From positions 139,717-203,716 of the forward strand of contig JAQUPP010000002.1 of assembly GCA_028716665.1 (NCBI GenBank): 64,000 bases of DNA, read 5' to 3'. Every line of letters begins with the position of its first letter. Positions within the stretch are counted from its first letter, which is position 1. Under the pieces are notes generated by a model. That model was not told where the DNA came from. It made no database searches and was given only the letters and a program-made list of their open reading frames with translations. The DNA is from Patescibacteria group bacterium. Its GTDB lineage: Bacteria; Patescibacteriota; Patescibacteriia; UBA2591; JAQUPP01. This document shows positions 11,224 to 63,939 of the stretch, piece after piece. A program made the position numbers and the translations under genes.

Positions 11224-12396
11224 ATGGCTCAATCCAAAAATCAGTCGTCAAAGTTGGCGGTAAAAATAAAAGTTATTGGCATCGGCGGGGCGGGTGGAGC
11301 GACTATCGGCAGGCTGATTAAAGCTAAAATAAACAATATTGAATACGTCGCCATCAATACTGATTTTAAATCTCTGGATTCAATCAAGGGAAAAGTTCAA
11401 AAAATAAAAATAGGAAAAAAAATCACCAAAGGATTGGGAACGGGAATGAATTTGGAACTGGGCAGAATGGCTATTGAAGAAAGCATCAATGACGTGAAAA
11501 AATCTTTAAACAACGCTGACTTGATTTTTATCGTTTCCGGATTGGGCGGGGGAACGGGCAGCGTGGTAACGCCCATTGTGGCGGAATTGGCGAAAAAAAA
11601 TGGAGCTCTTGTTATCGGCGTAATGACTACGCCTTTTATTTTTGAAGGAGCTCAACGCAAGCATATTGCCGATGAAGCTCTTAAAAAAATAATTCATCGA
11701 GTTGACGCGATGGTTACCATTCCGAACAGCCGGCTTTTGCAGACCATTGATAAATCAACTCCTTTATTGGAAGCGTTTAATATTTCCAGCGAAATTTTAA
11801 AACAGGCGATAGAAGGAATTTATAATATTCTTAATTTGCCCGGTTTGATTAACATAGATTTTGTTGAAGTCAAAACGGTTATTGAAAACGCCGGAGAAAC
11901 AATACTCGGCATGGGCACGGCCGAAGGAGAGGACAGAGCCAGGCAAGCCGCAAAATTGGCCTTGGAAAATCCTTTAATAGATATTTCCATCAAGGGAGCG
12001 AAAAAAGTTCTTTGCACCATCAGCGGCGGACCGGATTTAACCATGAATGAAGTTTATGAAATCACTCAAGAAATCACCAATCAAATCGGAAAAGAGGCGC
12101 AAATTATTTTCGGCGCCGTAACAGATGATAATTTAAAAAATAAAGTTAAGGTGACGATTGTCGCCACGGGTTTCAGCCAATTGCATTCTTATACGCCAAT
12201 TTTTGAGCCGTTCCACAAAAAAGAATTTACCGAAACTCCACTGCCTCAAAAATCTTCAATTAAAGAAGAAAAAAAAGAAATATTGAAAATAGAACCGATT
12301 TCAAAACAGGAATATAAATCAAAGTTTCAAAACAACAGCGAATTGTCGGAAGATGAATTGGAAATTCCCGCGTATTTGAGAAAGAAAAAGATGTAA
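11224..12396 (+). CDS. ftsZ: Cell division GTPase FtsZ
   Basis: Tubulin signature GGGTGSVVTPIVAELAKK; C-terminal conserved tail EIPAYLRKKKM. Confidence 0.95.
   Translation: MAQSKNQSSKLAVKIKVIGIGGAGGATIGRLIKAKINNIEYVAINTDFKSLDSIKGKVQKIKIGKKITKGLGTGMNLELGRMAIEESINDVKKSLNNADLIFIVSGLGGGTGSVVTPIVAELAKKNGALVIGVMTTPFIFEGAQRKHIADEALKKIIHRVDAMVTIPNSRLLQTIDKSTPLLEAFNISSEILKQAIEGIYNILNLPGLINIDFVEVKTVIENAGETILGMGTAEGEDRARQAAKLALENPLIDISIKGAKKVLCTISGGPDLTMNEVYEITQEITNQIGKEAQIIFGAVTDDNLKNKVKVTIVATGFSQLHSYTPIFEPFHKKEFTETPLPQKSSIKEEKKEILKIEPISKQEYKSKFQNNSELSEDELEIPAYLRKKKM
12331..12396 (+). repeat. Direct repeat copy 1 (authentic ftsZ 3' end, 66 nt)
   Basis: Sequence aacaacagcgaattgtcggaagatgaattggaaattcccgcgtatttgagaaagaaaaagatgtaa recurs at 13391, 14847, 16866. 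Confidence 0.9.
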
Positions 12397-12498: not shown

Positions 12499-13386
12499 AT
12501 GACAAAAATACTTAATGTTTTCAATAATATAAATTCTCTTCGTGAGAGATACTATAAAGCGTCTATAGGCAAGCAGGCGCTTATTAAACTTATCGCCGAA
12601 ACCGAAGTCGCCGAACAGGTTTATAACTCAAACGCCATTGAAAACAGCACGCTTACTTTCGAAGAAACCGAAAAAATACTTCTTCAAATTGATTTGGACA
12701 GATTTATTACCGAACGAGAAATTTTTGAAGCAAAGAATTTGGCAAAAGTTGTATCCTATATAGACAAAAAAGCCAAAGAACAAGAACTTACACTTGAAGT
12801 AATTTTATCACTTCATAAAATGTTAATTTCAAATATCCGCGATGATGTCGCCGGAAGATTTAGAAAAGACAATGAATTTGTGCGTGTTGGAAACCATATA
12901 GCCCCGAATCCAAAAGAAGTAGTGGATCGCCTTGAAAAAATGTTGGCGGAATATAATGCCGCAAGCCATGAGAATATTATTAAGCGCATAGCGAAATTGC
13001 ATCTTGCTTTTGAATATACCCATCCGTTTATTGACGGCAATGGCCGCATTGGACGCGTTATTAACAATTATTTACTGATACGAGAAGGATTCGTCCCGAT
13101 AAATATAAAATTTATTGACAGGAAAAAATATTATGAAGCATTTAAAGAATTTGACGAAAAAGGCGCGACGGCTGTTATGGAAGAAATAGTGGGTAGGGCG
13201 CTTACTAATAGTTATCACAAACGATTGGCATATTTGGAAGGTAAAAAAATTATCACTCTGGCTGACTATGCTAAAAATAATAAACTTTCGCATTCAAATC
13301 TTATAAATAAAGCGGTTCGTCAAACAATTGAAGCTTTCTTGGAAAAGAATGTCTGGAAGATCGGCGTTAATAATACTAAAAAATAA
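12499..13386 (+). CDS. Class II Fic-family protein (AMPylator-like) with N-terminal inhibitory motif
   Basis: HPFIDGNGRIGR canonical Fic motif; SNAIEN matches (S/T)xxxE(G/N) inhibitory helix. Confidence 0.85.
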   Translation: MTKILNVFNNINSLRERYYKASIGKQALIKLIAETEVAEQVYNSNAIENSTLTFEETEKILLQIDLDRFITEREIFEAKNLAKVVSYIDKKAKEQELTLEVILSLHKMLISNIRDDVAGRFRKDNEFVRVGNHIAPNPKEVVDRLEKMLAEYNAASHENIIKRIAKLHLAFEYTHPFIDGNGRIGRVINNYLLIREGFVPINIKFIDRKKYYEAFKEFDEKGATAVMEEIVGRALTNSYHKRLAYLEGKKIITLADYAKNNKLSHSNLINKAVRQTIEAFLEKNVWKIGVNNTKK

Positions 13387-13390
13387 TATA

Positions 13391-13456
13391 AACAACAGCG
13401 AATTGTCGGAAGATGAATTGGAAATTCCCGCGTATTTGAGAAAGAGAAAGATGTAA
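13391..13456 (+). repeat. Direct repeat copy 2 of ftsZ 3' end (66 nt, 1 mismatch)
   Basis: Sequence identity to 12331-12396. Confidence 0.9.
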
Positions 13457-13667: not shown

Positions 13668-13925
13668 ATGTACTCAATTATAGAAACAATCAAACAGGCT
13701 GCCAGTAAAAGAAAGATTTTAAAGATTATTTATCGTGAGAAAGATGGTACAAGCGAGGGGTGGCGATATATAGAACCCTATAGTTTCAGTCATGATGATG
13801 GCGAAGACGGTCTTTTTGCTTGGGATATTAGTAAAGGTGGCATCAGGAGATTTTCATTTGATAGAATTAATGATATTCAACTCACTGATGAAACATATAA
13901 TCCGCGTTATGGGATAGAAATTTAA
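13668..13925 (+). CDS. Stand-alone WYL-domain-like small protein
   Basis: KILKIIYREKDG..RYIEPYSF...GLFAWD...GIRRFSFDRI matches WYL domain consensus (iiY..g..R.veP..l.....wyL.aw....g.R.FrldRI). Confidence 0.55.
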   Translation: MYSIIETIKQAASKRKILKIIYREKDGTSEGWRYIEPYSFSHDDGEDGLFAWDISKGGIRRFSFDRINDIQLTDETYNPRYGIEI

Positions 13926-13926
13926 T

Positions 13927-14727
13927 ATGGAAAATAAAAAATTTAAATTAAAAATAAAAAAAAGAACTTTACTTATTATTGATTGGGCAAACGTTTGGGG
14001 TTGGTCAAAAACTTTAAAATGGGAAGTATGCCCTCAAAAATTATTTAAATTTTTTGATAGACCAAAAATTATTGATAAAAGATTTTATTATGGAGTAGAA
14101 AAGGGTCAGCCAAAATCAGAAAATTTTGAATTAGAAATTAAAAACATCGGATTTACTCCTATTTTTAAAGAAGTTAAATGGATACCAGTTTTGCTGGAAG
14201 AACAGTCTCATTTTAAGAAAATTGTTAAAGATTTATTTAATGTATTAGATAATGTGAAAAATACAAATTCTAATATTTCAAATAAACTTTATGAGTTGAT
14301 TAAAAAAATCAATGATTTGTCTGAAACAAGCGTTGGTAACAACAAGGAATCTTTTAACTTGTCTAGTGAGAAAAGTTTAAAGGAAATATTTGACTTAATT
14401 GAAGAATTGGATATTGATTTGAAAAATTTGAATATTGAAATAGGCGGGCTTCAAGAAAATTTAAAATTGCCGGTTCGAAGGCGGAAATGTGATTTTGATG
14501 TAGAAATAACTAGAGATGCTTTGAATGCTCAAGATAATTATGATACATTATTGTTATTTAGTGGGGATGGTGATTATTCTGCCTTAACAGCGGATTTAAT
14601 TGCAAAAGGTAAAAAGGTAATTTTAGTTTTTGCTTCTGATCATTTAGGGAAGGAATATCGAGAGATAAAGAGTAATCTTTTTTATGCTTGTTTAATTGAT
14701 AATTTAAGAGATATTTTACAAAAATAA
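13927..14727 (+). CDS. NYN/LabA-like (PIN-fold) predicted ribonuclease with central coiled-coil insert
   Basis: N-terminal LLIIDWANV and C-terminal LLLFSGDGDYSALTADLIAKGKKVILVFA match NYN/LabA core. Confidence 0.55.
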   Translation: MENKKFKLKIKKRTLLIIDWANVWGWSKTLKWEVCPQKLFKFFDRPKIIDKRFYYGVEKGQPKSENFELEIKNIGFTPIFKEVKWIPVLLEEQSHFKKIVKDLFNVLDNVKNTNSNISNKLYELIKKINDLSETSVGNNKESFNLSSEKSLKEIFDLIEELDIDLKNLNIEIGGLQENLKLPVRRRKCDFDVEITRDALNAQDNYDTLLLFSGDGDYSALTADLIAKGKKVILVFASDHLGKEYREIKSNLFYACLIDNLRDILQK

Positions 14728-14757: not shown

Positions 14758-14846
14758 GTATCTCAATGAATAAATTCATTGAGCGCGATTAATTAAAATA
14801 TAGCATATAATGTTAAAATTACAATAGGCCATTGTGGATAACCTCA

Positions 14847-14910
14847 AACAGCGAATTGTCGGAAGATGAATTGGAAATTCCCGCGTATTTGAGAAAGAAA
14901 AAGGGGTAAT
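14847..14910 (+). repeat. Direct repeat copy 3 of ftsZ 3' end (~64 nt; gatg->gggg change)
   Basis: Sequence identity to 12333-12396. Confidence 0.85.
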
Positions 14911-15394: not shown

Positions 15395-15883
15395 ATGCAT
15401 GCAAAAATTTTAAATCAAGATGCCGATACTTATTACAATGAAGGAATAGGCTTAGAAAAATTGGGACACTACGAAGAAGCAATAGAAATGTATGACCAAG
15501 CAATTAAAATTAATCCTCGATTTGACGCCGCCTATTACAGTAAAGGAAGGACCTTAAATGAATTAGGGAATTACAGAGAAGCGATAAAAATGTTTGATCA
15601 GGCAATTAAAATTGCCCCTCAATTTGCCTGGATTTATAATAAAGGATATCAAGAAGTGATAGAAAGATCCTGTCAGGCAATCAAATTTAGAGGAAGTGAC
15701 TTAAATGAATTAGGGAATTACAGAGAAGCGATAAAAATGTTTGATCAGGCAATTAAAATTGATCCTCAGAATGCCGATGTTTATATTAGAAAAGGATATG
15801 CCTTAGATAAATTAGGTAATCATAGAGAAGCGATAAAAATGTATAAAAAGGCACTTAAAATTGATCCTCATTTTGGAGAATAA
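15395..15883 (+). CDS. TPR-repeat protein (contains two nucleotide-identical internal repeats)
   Basis: Repeated YxEAIKMxDQAIKIxP TPR-like units; DLNELGNYREAIKMFDQAIKI duplicated. Confidence 0.65.
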   Translation: MHAKILNQDADTYYNEGIGLEKLGHYEEAIEMYDQAIKINPRFDAAYYSKGRTLNELGNYREAIKMFDQAIKIAPQFAWIYNKGYQEVIERSCQAIKFRGSDLNELGNYREAIKMFDQAIKIDPQNADVYIRKGYALDKLGNHREAIKMYKKALKIDPHFGE

Positions 15884-16865: not shown

Positions 16866-16899
16866 TAATTCCCGCGTATTTGAGAAAGAAAAAGATGTA
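16866..16899 (+). repeat. Direct repeat copy 4 (partial, 34 nt) of ftsZ 3' end
   Basis: aattcccgcgtatttgagaaagaaaaagatgtag. Confidence 0.8.
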
Positions 16900-17070
16900 G
16901 TTTATTCCCTACCGGATTGACAATTTTTTATCGCTCAAATTCTAGCAGTTTGAATTAAAATTTTGCATAAGTTTTCAAAATATATTATTTTTTAAATGAT
17001 GATGAATATAAATGGATTATTGCACAATTTAATGAATAAGTGAGTTAAGAAATATAAGGTTCAAAATAGT

Positions 17071-18564
17071 ATGAAAAATATTCAAATTCAGAAATCGAAT
17101 AGTAGTGAGAAAGAAACCATAACAATTGAAAAAAATATGGTTATTATTGGGGCAAATGGTTCTGGTAAAACAAGACTCGGAGCAATGCTTGAACAAATAA
17201 ATACTCCTACAAAAAGAATTTCTGCACAGAGATATTTGACATTGCGTGAATTAGTAGAAAAGCAAGACGTTGAGACTGCAGATAATCAACTTAAAAATAT
17301 TTATAAAAATCAACCTTCTAATTCACCTCAAAATGATTATCAGCAAGTACTTATTTTATTGTTTGCCCAAGAATCAAGGAGGGATTCAGAGTACGTAGCA
17401 TCTTCGCGTGAGTCTAGAGGGAGGGTAGAAATTCCACAATCAATAAAAGAGAAGGTGATTGATTGTTGGATTTCTATTTTTCCTTATCGAGCATTAAAAC
17501 TTGAGAAAGATAGGGTTCGAGCTGATGATTTCTCTGGGCAAGAGATGAGTGACGGCGAAAAAGTTGGCCTGTATTTAATCTCTCAAATTTTACTTGCTGA
17601 AAAAGACTGTATTCTAATTATTGATGAACCAGAACTTCATCTACATAAAGCTTTAATGACAAGATTGTGGAATAAATTAGAAGAATATAGAAGTGACTGT
17701 ACTTTTATTTATATAACCCATGATCTCGATTTCGCAGTTAGTAAGTCGTCAAGTAAGCTCATTTGGGTCCAGAGTTATAAAGATAATTTATGGATTTGGA
17801 AAGAGATTGATCCAAATAATATAATTCCTGAGAATCTTTATCTTGAAATACTTGGAAGTCGAAAATCAATTTTATTTGTTGAAGGTGAGAAGGGTTCGCT
17901 AGATATACAAATTTATCAGTTATTCTATGATAATTTTACAGTTATTCCTCGCGGCTCTTGTGGAGAAGTAATTGAATCGGTAAAGGGTTTAAAAAAGAAT
18001 CCTAATCTTCACGACAAAAAGGTTTATGGGCTTATTGACAGGGATTTTCATTCTGAAGAAAAGATTAAATCATGGCATAAAAAAGGAATATTTAGTATTA
18101 AATTAAATAAGGTAGAAAATCTTTTTTTGATACCAGAAATAATTGAGATGGTCTGTAATCATTTGTCGAAACCAGAAGAAAAAGAAAAAATTATCTCAAA
18201 AATTAAGGAAAATTATAAAAAAAATAAAAAGAAAATATTTTTTACTGCTTCAAAAGATCGACAACATAGGCACTTAGGTGAAAAATTTGGATTGGTAAAA
18301 AATAAAAAGAATTATGATAATTTTAAAAGTGTTATTTTTTCTGAATTAGATAGCCTGTTTGTAAGTGATTTGCCAGATAATAATAGTGAAATTATAGAAA
18401 TATTGAAGGTTTATCCGTATAAGGGTTTTGTTAGAGAGATACAGGGAATGGTAGGATTATCAAAAAATGAATATATAAATTTGGTGTTAAGTTTTTTATC
18501 ATCTTCCGATAAAAGAAAAAAAATAATTAAAATTTTAAAATTTTATTTACCCAGAATAAACTAA
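17071..18564 (+). CDS. OLD-family-like ABC-type ATPase fused to Toprim-like/DUF4435-like C-terminal domain (candidate defence nuclease)
   Basis: Walker A GANGSGKT, signature MSDGEK, Walker B ILIIDEPELHLH, H-loop IYITHD; C-term ILFVEGEKGSLD ... GLIDRDF resembling Toprim E and DxD motifs. Confidence 0.6.
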   Translation: MKNIQIQKSNSSEKETITIEKNMVIIGANGSGKTRLGAMLEQINTPTKRISAQRYLTLRELVEKQDVETADNQLKNIYKNQPSNSPQNDYQQVLILLFAQESRRDSEYVASSRESRGRVEIPQSIKEKVIDCWISIFPYRALKLEKDRVRADDFSGQEMSDGEKVGLYLISQILLAEKDCILIIDEPELHLHKALMTRLWNKLEEYRSDCTFIYITHDLDFAVSKSSSKLIWVQSYKDNLWIWKEIDPNNIIPENLYLEILGSRKSILFVEGEKGSLDIQIYQLFYDNFTVIPRGSCGEVIESVKGLKKNPNLHDKKVYGLIDRDFHSEEKIKSWHKKGIFSIKLNKVENLFLIPEIIEMVCNHLSKPEEKEKIISKIKENYKKNKKKIFFTASKDRQHRHLGEKFGLVKNKKNYDNFKSVIFSELDSLFVSDLPDNNSEIIEILKVYPYKGFVREIQGMVGLSKNEYINLVLSFLSSSDKRKKIIKILKFYLPRIN

Positions 18565-18688: not shown

Positions 18689-20590
18689 ATGAAAAAACAA
18701 TTCTCATTTTTTAAAATTACAATAATCATTTTAATATTTGGTGTTTTTGCATTTGTCAATCAAGTTTGTGCAGAAATAAATGATTATCAACTAAATAAAA
18801 ATGATGTTCAATATGCGATAACACCATTAATATTTAACGAAGGGGATAGAGAGCCAATTGAATTAAAGTTTAAAATATTATCATCAAATTTTGATTATAC
18901 TGAAATTAAGTCTATTTATTTTAAGTTTTATAATTATTCTGATGATTTATACTTTTCTTTTTCTAAAGGAATCTTTGAAAATGATTGGAACACAAATAAC
19001 AAAGAATTCACATTCAGTATGACAAATGATTGGTCTACAAGATATAATGCCAAGTTAATTTCAATTGATTATCAGGTTAAATATCAAAATATTTTGTATT
19101 CTATTCCAATTGATGATGAAACCAAAATAATAGTTATACCGACGGTGCCGATTACTTGTAATTCTTTTATTTATTCTAATTGGTCTTCTTGCTCTGAGGG
19201 CGGTTCACAGACAAGGTCTATAATTTCTTCTTCTCCAAGTGGATGTTCCGGGGGCAACCCTATTTTAACTCAAACTTGTACTTATGTTCTACCAGTTTGC
19301 ACTTCATGGGTATATTCCGATTGGAATATTTGTCAATCTAATGGGACACAAAATAGAACTGTAACTTCATTTTCACCAAACGGTTGCACGGGTGGCAACC
19401 CTATTTTAACTCAATCCTGTGCTTATGTTGCACCAACCTGCACTTCATGGACTTATTCTAATTGGTCTTCGTGTTTAGACAACAGTCAGCAAACAAGGTC
19501 TATAATTTCTTCTTCTCCAAATGGTTGTTCTAATGGAAATCCAATATTGACTCAATCTTGCACATATATTTACACTCCACCAACCTGCACTTCATGGACT
19601 TATTCTGATTGGGGCGCGTGTGTTAATAATCAACAAAGCAGAACAATAATATCGTCACAGCCTGCAAGCTGTATTGGCGGTAATCCTATATTAATACAAA
19701 CTTGTAATCTTACACCAGCCTGTTCAGAAAACGATTGGACGTCTCTTTTAACTCCAACGGCTTGTCCAAATAACGGTCAGCAAACAAAAACATGGTATAA
19801 AATAGGGCAATGCCAAGAGGGAGTTACTCATCCATCTACAGAAACAATCAGCTGTAATTATCAAGCACTTACTTGTACTGATTTCACATACAATAATTGG
19901 GGTGAGTGCGGTTTAAGCGGTGTGCAATCAAGGACGGTATTTTCTTCTTCTCCAAGTGGATGTTCCGGGGGCAACCCTATTTTAACTCAAACTTGTACTT
20001 ATATTCCTACCTGCATAGTAAATAATTGGTCTTGTGGTAATTGGTCTAGTTGTTCTTCAAATGGTGCTCAAACTAGAATATGTAATAAAATTTTAAATTG
20101 CGATGGGGGCGTATTGTCGCCTGCAACTACACAATCATGTATTTATACATCGCCAGAAAAACAAGAAAATATCGGTTCACTTTCGGACGGAACCTTGGTC
20201 AGAATAAAAGGTACTGCCGGTGTTTATTTAATTTATAACAATCAAAAACGTCCCATTAAGAGTGCTGCGGTATTTTTAGGCAGAGGATATAAATGGAAAA
20301 ATATAATTGATGTTGATGCGAATATATTAAATGTTTATCCTACGGGCTCAGAATTAACAATTTCAGAAGTAATAAATATAGTGCCAAAAAATCAGGGTAT
20401 CAAGATAAAGATTAATGTCCCGAGTTTGCGAGTTAGAAGTTTACCCAATGCGAACGGAAAAATTATTATTTCAGTCTTGAACGGGAAAGAATATCAAGTG
20501 ATCGAAAAACAAACCGGTTGGTATAAAATAAATTATACTGCTAATAAAACAGGCTGGATAATGAGCCAATATACAAAAATAATTAAATAA
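18689..20590 (+). CDS. Secreted protein with ~7 thrombospondin-type-1-like Cys-rich repeats and C-terminal SH3b-like domain
   Basis: Signal peptide; repeats CTSW.YS.WS.C..NG.QTR...SSSP.GC.GGNPILTQ.C.Y (W-S-x-W-S-x-C...QTR) with near-identical DNA copies; C-term GWYKINYTANKTGWIMSQYTKI. Confidence 0.55.
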   Translation: MKKQFSFFKITIIILIFGVFAFVNQVCAEINDYQLNKNDVQYAITPLIFNEGDREPIELKFKILSSNFDYTEIKSIYFKFYNYSDDLYFSFSKGIFENDWNTNNKEFTFSMTNDWSTRYNAKLISIDYQVKYQNILYSIPIDDETKIIVIPTVPITCNSFIYSNWSSCSEGGSQTRSIISSSPSGCSGGNPILTQTCTYVLPVCTSWVYSDWNICQSNGTQNRTVTSFSPNGCTGGNPILTQSCAYVAPTCTSWTYSNWSSCLDNSQQTRSIISSSPNGCSNGNPILTQSCTYIYTPPTCTSWTYSDWGACVNNQQSRTIISSQPASCIGGNPILIQTCNLTPACSENDWTSLLTPTACPNNGQQTKTWYKIGQCQEGVTHPSTETISCNYQALTCTDFTYNNWGECGLSGVQSRTVFSSSPSGCSGGNPILTQTCTYIPTCIVNNWSCGNWSSCSSNGAQTRICNKILNCDGGVLSPATTQSCIYTSPEKQENIGSLSDGTLVRIKGTAGVYLIYNNQKRPIKSAAVFLGRGYKWKNIIDVDANILNVYPTGSELTISEVINIVPKNQGIKIKINVPSLRVRSLPNANGKIIISVLNGKEYQVIEKQTGWYKINYTANKTGWIMSQYTKIIK

Positions 20591-63613: not shown

Positions 63614-63939
63614 TCCGGCGTAGCTCAATGGTAGAGCAGCTGGCTGTCAAAAAAAGGCAGCCCTCCGAAGTAATTCGGGGTAGAAAAATAGGGTGAAATC
63701 GGGGAAACCCCACTGGGGCAATCCCGAGCCAAGCCTTAACCTATAAAGTTAAGGAAGGTGTAGAGACTATCCATTTATGGAGTAGCCGATCAACTTGTTG
63801 ATGTAGGCGAAGCGCCCTATCCCGCACAGAATTTAATATTTTATTAAATTCTACGGGAATGATATAGTCCACGCTTAGAAGCAATTCTAGGATAAGTGTA
63901 ACCAGCTTGTTGTGGGTTCGATTCCCTCCGCCGGAGCCA
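63614..63939 (+). tRNA. tRNA-Asn (anticodon GUU) interrupted by group I intron; exon1 63614-63647, exon2 63899-63936 (+CCA to 63939)
   Basis: Exons fold as tRNA with U1-A72, G73, D-stem gctc/gagc, anticodon stem gctgg/ccagc, loop cuGU|Uaa, T-arm gtggg-ttcgatt-ccctc. Confidence 0.7.
63648..63898 (+). ncRNA. Group I self-splicing intron (IC3-like, tRNA-intron family), 251 nt
   Basis: Hallmark P3/P7 sequences GGCAATCCCGAGCCAAGCC and AAGGTGTAGAGACTATCCATTTATGG (cf. trnL intron GCAAUCCUGAGCCAA / AGGUGCAGAGACUCAAUGG); P1 exon ggcugU pairs with intron gcagcc (U.G at splice site); intron ends with G. Confidence 0.75.

Follow-up and report, generated by a model that had tools for sequence, protein, structure and literature searches.

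The locus considered here raises a simple question: is a gene recorded only as an 'AAA family ATPase' a defence nuclease and, if so, of which family? The gene lies in a 64,000-nucleotide stretch of contig JAQUPP010000002.1 from a Patescibacteria group bacterium (positions 139,717 to 203,716 of the forward strand; this whole stretch is referred to below as the window), and the identical protein is recorded at NCBI, with that annotation alone, from Patescibacteria metagenome-assembled genomes (MAGs). An initial annotation, made from the letters of the window, had described the product as an ABC ATPase fused to a Toprim-like domain and had proposed it as a candidate defence nuclease resembling OLD, Gabija GajA or the DUF4435 partner of AbiL-type systems. 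According to the analysis presented here, the gene is very probably a single-gene (fused) PARIS, AriAB, and as such it is an ordinary addition to a large, already described family, in which the fused form comprises ∼1,000 clusters at 50% identity. The overall explanation that is favoured, to which a rough probability of 0.65 is given, is that of a single-chain PARIS-type anti-phage protein in which an ATP-driven sensor is combined with a Toprim nuclease.

PARIS has been defined as the combination of an ATPase (AAA_15 or AAA_21) with a DUF4435 protein, and single-gene ariA–ariB fusions have already been described (Rousset et al., 2022, PMC9122126). These fusions form two 'merged' clades with a single origin from a two-gene clade (Burman et al., 2024, PMC11464382). 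In canonical PARIS, a hexamer of AriA sequesters three AriB molecules, and the ATP-dependent binding of Ocr frees AriB. The freed AriB forms dimers that cleave tRNA-Lys, among other tRNAs, by two-metal Toprim catalysis with E26, D30, D88, E90 and E122. The coiled coil of AriA, together with IS1 and IS2, builds the hexamer and the trigger pores (PMC11464382).

The reading frame of the window, which begins with ATG and encodes 497 residues, was present exactly as given in the initial annotation, and all of the motifs quoted there were recovered in the same order, with catalytic positions that are invariant across homologues. The features of the gene are as follows.

17071..18564, + strand: ariAB-like open reading frame (ORF), fused ABC ATPase and DUF4435/Toprim; PADLOC AriAB match, AlphaFold2 (AF2) model with a predicted local distance difference test (pLDDT) score of 90.5
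17071..17820, + strand: N-terminal ABC ATPase domain (residues 1–250) with a short helical insert only; Pfam, profile and Foldseek matches
17149..17172, + strand: Walker A, GANGSGKT (residues 27–34; K33); G27, N29 and K33 invariant
17221..17232, + strand: Q-loop, SAQR (residues 51–54); R54 invariant, S51, A52 and Q53 conserved at ≥90%
17545..17562, + strand: ABC signature, MSDGEK (residues 159–164); S160, D161, G162 and E163 invariant
17611..17646, + strand: Walker B and D-loop, ILIIDEPELHLH (residues 181–192); D185, E186, P187, E188, H190 and H192 invariant
17707..17724, + strand: H-loop, IYITHD (residues 213–218; H217); Y214, T216 and H217 invariant
17863..18360, + strand: DUF4435 domain with Toprim core (residues 265–430); Pfam PF14491, PADLOC AriB and model
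17869..17904, + strand: Toprim Glu motif, ILFVEGEKGSLD (residues 267–278; E271, D278); E271 and D278 invariant
18028..18048, + strand: Toprim DxD motif, GLIDRDF (residues 320–326; D323, D325); D323 and D325 invariant
18112..18126, + strand: third acidic motif, VENLF (E349, N350); both invariant, including in relatives of 22–36% identity
18163..18561, + strand: C-terminal all-helical region (residues 365–497), the most variable part; helices in the model

At the level of sequence, the decisive result for the identity of the protein is its full-length match to the PADLOC AriAB model PDLC02982 (E = 1.2e-110, 368.8 bits) in a library of 5,027 defence models, in which residues 5–496 of the protein are aligned to positions 30–567 of the 570 in the profile. 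The candidate defence role that had been proposed is likewise supported. The PADLOC AriA and AriB profiles match the respective halves of the protein, and when the C-terminal domain was scanned in isolation at E ≤ 1 only AriAB (1e-46), AriB (4.8e-12) and a second AriAB model were matched; none of the GajA, AbiLii and retron-Toprim models in the library matched this domain even at that threshold. Pfam DUF4435 (PF14491) was matched over residues 265–430 at 45–47 bits against a cutoff of 27, with E = 1.4e-11 in the scan of the full protein and E = 3.1e-12 for the domain match at 47 bits. When the N-terminal half was scanned alone, AAA_21 (43.4 bits, cutoff 27), SMC_N (41 bits) and ABC_tran (29 bits) were all above their Pfam cutoffs, whereas AAA_15 reached 30.0 bits, under its cutoff of 32.1; the protein is therefore an AAA_21-type fusion. 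Profile matches of the N-terminal domain comprise retron PtuA, Rad50, AriA and the OLD protein of Thermus scotoductus (Ts OLD), and the Walker B region aligns to residues 366–425 of AriA, the stretch that contains its Walker B residue E393.

The same scans bear on the families first suggested for the gene. Pfam Toprim_Old (PF20469) did not match the isolated C-terminal half even at E ≤ 10, and the GajA profiles, at 23–29 bits, cover the ATPase only; the OLD/GajA-type placement is not supported. DUF4435 was the right domain to name; the system to which it belongs here is PARIS, in which it corresponds to AriB, and not AbiL, since AbiLii gave no match and the AbiLi profile (32.6 bits) matched only the ATPase core. 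Membership in OLD, Gabija and AbiL was thus rejected on the Pfam and PADLOC evidence.

Conservation was assessed in a main alignment of 30 homologues with 36–72% identity. The catalytic set of the ATPase (G27, N29, K33, S160-D161-G162-E163, D185, E186 and H217) is invariant and the Q-loop nearly so. In the C-terminal half, five acidic residues (E271, D278, D323, D325 and E349) and N350 are invariant, and these residues are also kept in a C-terminal alignment of relatives that are 22–36% identical. Judged from their conservation and order, E271, D323, D325, D278 and E349 would be the ligands expected for two-metal catalysis. The architecture proposed at the outset, in which a full ABC ATPase is joined to a domain of Toprim type carrying a catalytic Glu and a DxD, is supported. 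Conservation falls to 0.36–0.60 in the C-terminal helical region versus 0.8–0.9 in the catalytic cores and is lowest in the insert of the ATPase (residues 61–80 and 101–120) and in the C-terminal helices (residues 361–440), which are candidates for cue recognition or oligomerisation.

A single uninterrupted ORF is also found in the best 120 homologues. No UvrD-like helicase was found among the neighbouring genes, which encode an S49 peptidase on the upstream side and, downstream, a secreted protein of Cys-rich/SH3 type, and the single-gene arrangement that had been noted therefore stands. Members of the family are typically 520–570 residues long, and the window protein, at 497 residues, lies at the short end, in agreement with the shortness remarked upon at the outset. 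The distinct subfamily that had further been suggested corresponds to the merged ariAB form already described (PMC9122126, PMC11464382). The lengths of 520–570 residues suggest that absence of the coiled-coil scaffold is general in the merged class.

The AF2 models are of high predicted quality, with a pLDDT of 94.3 for the isolated C-terminal domain. The C-terminal core is modelled as four β-α units in a Toprim-like layout, in which E271 is placed at the end of predicted strand 1 and D323 and D325 at the end of predicted strand 3; the insert of the ATPase is modelled as three short helices only. Foldseek matches of the N-terminal domain were GajA, Rad50, PtuA and OLD. The top matches of the full-length model were GajA (8x5i, 8u7i and 8sm3; E ∼1e-7, >600 columns aligned), together with retron PtuA and Ts OLD, and the global superposition on GajA is poor (TM-score ∼0.3, root-mean-square deviation ∼20 Å).

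A number of observations weigh against the favoured explanation. The full-length profile matched the solved AriA at only E = 0.01 and in the Walker B region only, and a phmmer search of the whole protein against the PDB returned only ABC-F or transporter nucleotide-binding domains (NBDs) and no PARIS chain. A diverse profile of the C-terminal domain failed to match the solved AriB of E. coli at E ≤ 10, and this protein was also absent from the top 50 Foldseek matches of the isolated C-terminal model. None of the PDB matches of that model was significant, the best being Ts OLD (E = 0.23, probability 0.90) and the Toprim domain of RNase M5 (E = 0.64); the top ranks in BFVD were Toprim proteins, but with E > 0.1. 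A scan for promoters and terminators around the gene gave nothing above shuffled background. The window ATPase lacks ∼200 scaffold and trigger-pore residues, and trigger sensing is therefore not transferable from canonical PARIS. Whether the substrate is given as tRNA or as DNA is purely a matter of analogy, and no published experiment on a fused AriAB was found in the literature. A profile–profile bridge via two-gene PARIS was sought in 116 fetched loci, in which no stand-alone DUF4435 gene was present beside a separate ATPase, only fragments.

Among 11 close homologues (50–71% identity), picked by the length of their contigs, from bacteria of the candidate phyla radiation (CPR), nine lie in or beside restriction–modification (R-M) operons. 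Five (P0007, P0015, P0027, P0039 and P0042) are located inside Type I operons, in the order hsdM-(variable cargo)-hsdS-ariAB-hsdR, are translationally coupled there and are joined to their hsd neighbours by ATGA overlaps (4–14 nt overlaps) or by gaps of 3–8 nt; in the EcoprrI locus of E. coli, prrC is located between hsdS and hsdR. In four more, the gene comes directly after a restriction or methylase gene of the same strand (NgoPII with a C5 methylase, HindVP with a C5 methylase, an N4/N6 methylase with HNH, and DpnI). The remaining two (P0031 and P0077) have no R-M genes nearby, one being in a housekeeping context and the other in an integrase-flanked element. No conserved neighbours other than R-M genes were found across the 11 contexts. 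In distant relatives, local hidden Markov models for HsdM/S/R and methylases detected R-M genes within 3 kb in 7 of 89 loci, and R-M linkage is therefore a trait of the CPR clade and not of the whole family. In a rough neighbour-joining tree, built with no support values, the window copy groups with copies that are embedded in Type I operons, and the basal branches likewise include embedded copies.

A search of metagenome contigs gave at least 11 distant loci, and a search of genome contigs only relatives of ≤41% identity. By tblastn, in which all matches were fused, relatives occur on plasmids of Campylobacter, Bacillus and Rhizobium and in the Oenococcus phage phi9805, and a PHROG family exists for fused relatives. 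A fused relative with 26% identity over residues 26–361, annotated only as 'AAA family ATPase', is carried by plasmids of 5–6 kb in E. coli and Salmonella (for example NZ_CP041680.1 and NZ_CP091609.1; H65–H84), which makes it a convenient experimental model for the merged class. As a separate observation, the Type I R-M operons of CPR relatives with ariAB between hsdS and hsdR (L001, L004, L094, L097 and L113) have, in addition, another position of variable content, located between hsdM and hsdS, that contains KilA-N, RhuM, DUF4145, a Schlafen/AlbA_2-HATPase protein or unknown ORFs; the R-M operon therefore serves as a carrier of accessory defence-type genes. That PARIS-like modules of OLD-ABC and Toprim type are recruited into BREX and R-M-like loci is already known (PMC12839542), although this particular arrangement may not be.

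Three other readings of the gene were weighed against that of a PARIS-type anti-phage protein. A housekeeping ABC ATPase, be it an ABC-F translation factor, a transporter subunit or a repair protein like RecF, SbcC or SMC, that carries an unrelated extension at its C-terminus would fit the source annotations, in which homologues are named 'ABC-type transport system ATPase', the ABC-F proteins ExpZ, PoxtA and YbiT that lead the single-sequence PDB matches of the ATPase half, and a Walker A–Walker B spacing as short as that of transporter NBDs. However, the best NCBIfam match, ribo_prot_ABC_F, reached 49.1 bits against a cutoff of 380, and the others scored less. All of them are confined to the signature and the Walker B stretch, and with every match far below its cutoff, such membership is effectively refuted. 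The protein has a single NBD and no permease neighbour, its C-terminal half is a conserved DUF4435 with invariant acidic residues, its distribution is patchy and tied to mobile elements and R-M, and its composition is atypical for the host. A housekeeping role is thus extremely improbable, and neither the non-nuclease C-terminus nor the housekeeping placement that the initial annotation had named as the outcome against it was found. It is much less far-fetched, though still unlikely, that the gene encodes a nuclease like the Class 1 OLD proteins, in which an ATPase-regulated Toprim nicks or degrades phage or host DNA and not RNA. The architecture of one polypeptide with an ABC ATPase, a Toprim and no helicase partner is in keeping with this, the best full-length structural neighbours, GajA and Ts OLD, are described as DNA nucleases, and Ts OLD is the only PDB match of the C-terminal model with a sizeable probability. 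A review of the OLD family leaves undecided whether fused AriAB works differently from Class 1 OLD, and a Class 1 OLD of Vibrio cholerae is reported to nick DNA (PMC12392090). The profile evidence points elsewhere: DUF4435 and not Toprim_Old is matched, the C-terminal domain recognises AriB and AriAB models only, and the ATPase is without the inserted dimerisation domain of OLD. Moreover, AriB, the DUF4435 protein that has been characterised, is a tRNase, and a preprint of 2026 now also reports that the fused P2 OLD cleaves tRNA, its activation occurring by destabilisation of an inactive tetramer.

The R-M surroundings of the CPR copies lend themselves to a different explanation, namely that the protein is an R-M guardian of the PrrC kind, which has to associate physically with a Type I (or other) R-M complex, is kept latent by that complex and fires once the enzyme has been disabled by an anti-restriction factor of a phage; the solitary window copy would in that case be an orphan, either inert, in decay or reliant on R-M genes encoded elsewhere in the genome. 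The five copies in the slot of prrC, the four that follow restriction or methylase genes and the position of the window copy in the tree all agree with this, and PrrC and PARIS, the former encoded by a gene embedded in an R-M locus, have both been discussed as R-M guardians (PMC12707154). However, canonical PARIS is active in cells that have neither Type I R-M nor BREX (PMC9122126), and no hsd gene was found within the 64 kb of the window. The copy in the window is undamaged, its catalytic residues are all kept and three MAGs have it in identical form, and homologues free of R-M exist, as seen in P0031 and P0077, in 82 of the 89 distant loci and on the small plasmids of E. coli and Salmonella. 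Overall, this reading is regarded as quite improbable.

A mechanism for the single-chain PARIS-type protein can be outlined with the characterised two-gene system and P2 OLD as guides. A defence role for the fused AriAB of the window is likely. In the uninfected cell, the nuclease would be kept inactive by auto-inhibition, probably within an oligomer. The ATPase would sense a phage-derived cue in an ATP-dependent manner, probably via the variable insert (residues 61–120) and/or the variable C-terminal helices; the cue could plausibly be an anti-restriction protein, which is suggested because of the R-M surroundings of the relatives. Since the two halves are covalently linked and no coiled-coil scaffold is present, activation cannot be release from an AriA hexamer; activation must therefore proceed by intramolecular or oligomer rearrangement, as reported for the fused P2 OLD. 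Such a conformational or oligomeric change would allow two Toprim domains to pair as an active nuclease, which would cut host RNA, most likely the anticodon stem-loop of tRNA, so that translation would stop and the infection would be aborted. By analogy with AriB and P2 OLD, tRNA is put forward tentatively as the substrate, at slightly less than even odds. The window copy would act alone, as no R-M genes are found in the 64 kb, in low-GC acquired DNA beside defence-type genes.

Between ftsZ and gyrB, the gene is part of a region of low GC content, and its GC content at third codon positions is 0.22, versus 0.40 for ftsZ and 0.37 for gyrB, a composition that is atypical for the host. Homologues of HsdM/S/R were not found in the window. 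Four direct repeats of the 3' end of ftsZ (coding ...ELSEDELEIPAYLRKKKM*) are present, at 12330–12396, 13390–13456, 14843–14909 and 16867–16904, of which three are 67 nt long and one is a 38-nt core; the number expected by chance is 0.00. The terminal 67 nt of ftsZ reappear behind a Fic gene (99% identity) and behind a WYL and NYN gene pair (91%), and the 38-nt core recurs without mismatch after a group of genes for a transmembrane (TM) protein, a TPR protein and an S49 peptidase. The last copy precedes ariAB.

16867..16904, + strand: fourth ftsZ-end repeat copy, 38 nt, 167 nt upstream of ariAB; context only

The four copies thus bound three segments (Fic; WYL and NYN; TM, TPR and S49 peptidase), and no fifth copy was found anywhere in the window. 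The initial annotation had placed the gene in the last of a series of cassettes; the repeats do bound three cassettes, but ariAB follows the fourth copy with no closing repeat, so that its DNA is either ancestral flank or an older insertion from which the distal repeat has been lost. The array has the look of cargo cassettes added in tandem, one after another, at an att-like site within the stop region of ftsZ. No recombinase or integrase for the repeats was matched in the window at E < 0.05, and the repeat core is absent from viral contigs. The ftsZ–gyrB arrangement is the same in all three MAG contigs with an identical FtsZ, without strain variants.

Several neighbouring genes are worth recording in their own right. 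The first segment encodes a Fic/DOC protein of 295 residues (12499–13386, + strand) that matches PADLOC PDC-S04 (E = 1e-34) and SoFic (E = 3e-27), and these defence-profile matches support the reading of the region as a defence island. In the second segment, an 85-residue stand-alone WYL protein (13668–13925) abuts a 266-residue predicted RNase with an NYN domain (13927–14727), both on the + strand, and the two may be a sensor–nuclease or toxin–antitoxin-like pair. The TPR protein of the third segment (162 residues; 15395–15883, + strand) contains an internal direct duplication of 185 nt with 74% identity (15442–15626 and 15691–15875). Immediately downstream of ariAB, a predicted secreted protein of 633 residues (18689–20590, + strand) carries about five tandem Cys-rich repeats of ∼47 residues, with a period of 141 nt in the DNA, and a C-terminal bacterial SH3 domain. 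Far from the gene, at 63638–63891 (+ strand), the Rfam model of the group I catalytic intron is matched over its full length at 75.5 bits, versus a gathering score of 50.

A bolder scenario can be drawn from these surroundings, in which the fused AriAB of the CPR is a PARIS reduced to a minimum, lacking the scaffold, that arose in evolution as an accessory but integral subunit of restriction enzymes. Translationally coupled between hsdS and hsdR in the manner of PrrC, it would sense an anti-restriction attack via the R-M complex and not through direct binding of the phage protein, and the window copy would be a derivative that left the operon and was captured in an integrase-less cassette hotspot at the 3' end of ftsZ. 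It is considered an outside chance. If true, it would unite the guardian logics of PrrC and PARIS in one family and would reveal a new site-specific cassette system in Patescibacteria.

For the reading as a fused PARIS, the gene on its own amounts to a routine upgrade of annotation, from 'AAA family ATPase' to AriAB, and extends by one gene the defence repertoire known from CPR bacteria, which is sparse. The wider interest lies in the merged class, which is large yet without an experiment in the literature found. The AriA scaffold, which explains sensing and release in canonical PARIS, is missing from the fused proteins, so their mechanism of activation must differ. The copies of the CPR clade in the position of prrC provide a natural setting for asking whether PARIS-type proteins guard a restriction enzyme directly, and the relatives on small plasmids of E. 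coli and Salmonella offer a tractable entry point.

Comparison with known systems places the window protein as follows. PrrC of the Type Ic R-M system EcoprrI offers a working analogy for the relatives, as a latent tRNA nuclease that is regulated by an NTPase and linked to the sensing of anti-restriction, and the hsdS–hsdR slot is shared with five close homologues; in contrast, the effectors are unrelated, no PrrC-type domain was detected in the protein, whose C-terminus is DUF4435, and the window copy lies outside an R-M locus. Gabija GajA, a Class 2 OLD protein, has the same domain order and gives the best full-length Foldseek matches, but the window gene has no GajB/UvrD-like neighbour and GajA profiles miss its C-terminal domain. 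Class 1 OLD proteins (P2 Old and Ts OLD, PDB entry 6P74) share the single chain with an ABC ATPase at its N-terminus and a Toprim at its C-terminus and the lack of a partner gene alongside; Ts OLD is among the structural matches of both the full-length and the C-terminal models, and P2 OLD is a precedent for a fused protein that cuts tRNA after rearrangement of an oligomer. They differ in that the Toprim of the window protein is of the DUF4435 type and not Toprim_Old, its C-terminal helical region is unlike theirs and its ATPase is without the inserted dimerisation domain.

The likeness to canonical PARIS (E. coli B185; PDB entries 8UX9 and 8V45) extends to the combination of an ABC ATPase sensor with a DUF4435/Toprim effector and to the five invariant acidic residues, which are ordered as E26, D30, D88, E90 and E122 of AriB, the residue-by-residue equivalence being deduced and not aligned. 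However, the domains are fused in the window protein, whereas canonical PARIS has separate ariA and ariB genes and a releasable effector. The distance between the Walker A Lys and the Walker B Glu is 153 residues (K33–E186), compared with 354 in AriA (K39–E393), and the ATPase is without the ∼200 residues that make up the coiled coil, IS1 and IS2 of AriA. The closest system is the merged PARIS AriAB (Rousset et al., 2022; 'merged 1/2' of Burman et al., 2024), with which the protein shares the one-polypeptide architecture, a similar length class and a full-length profile match. No defining difference separates the two; the window copy is shorter and comes from the CPR/Patescibacteria, in a clade that is mostly embedded in R-M loci.

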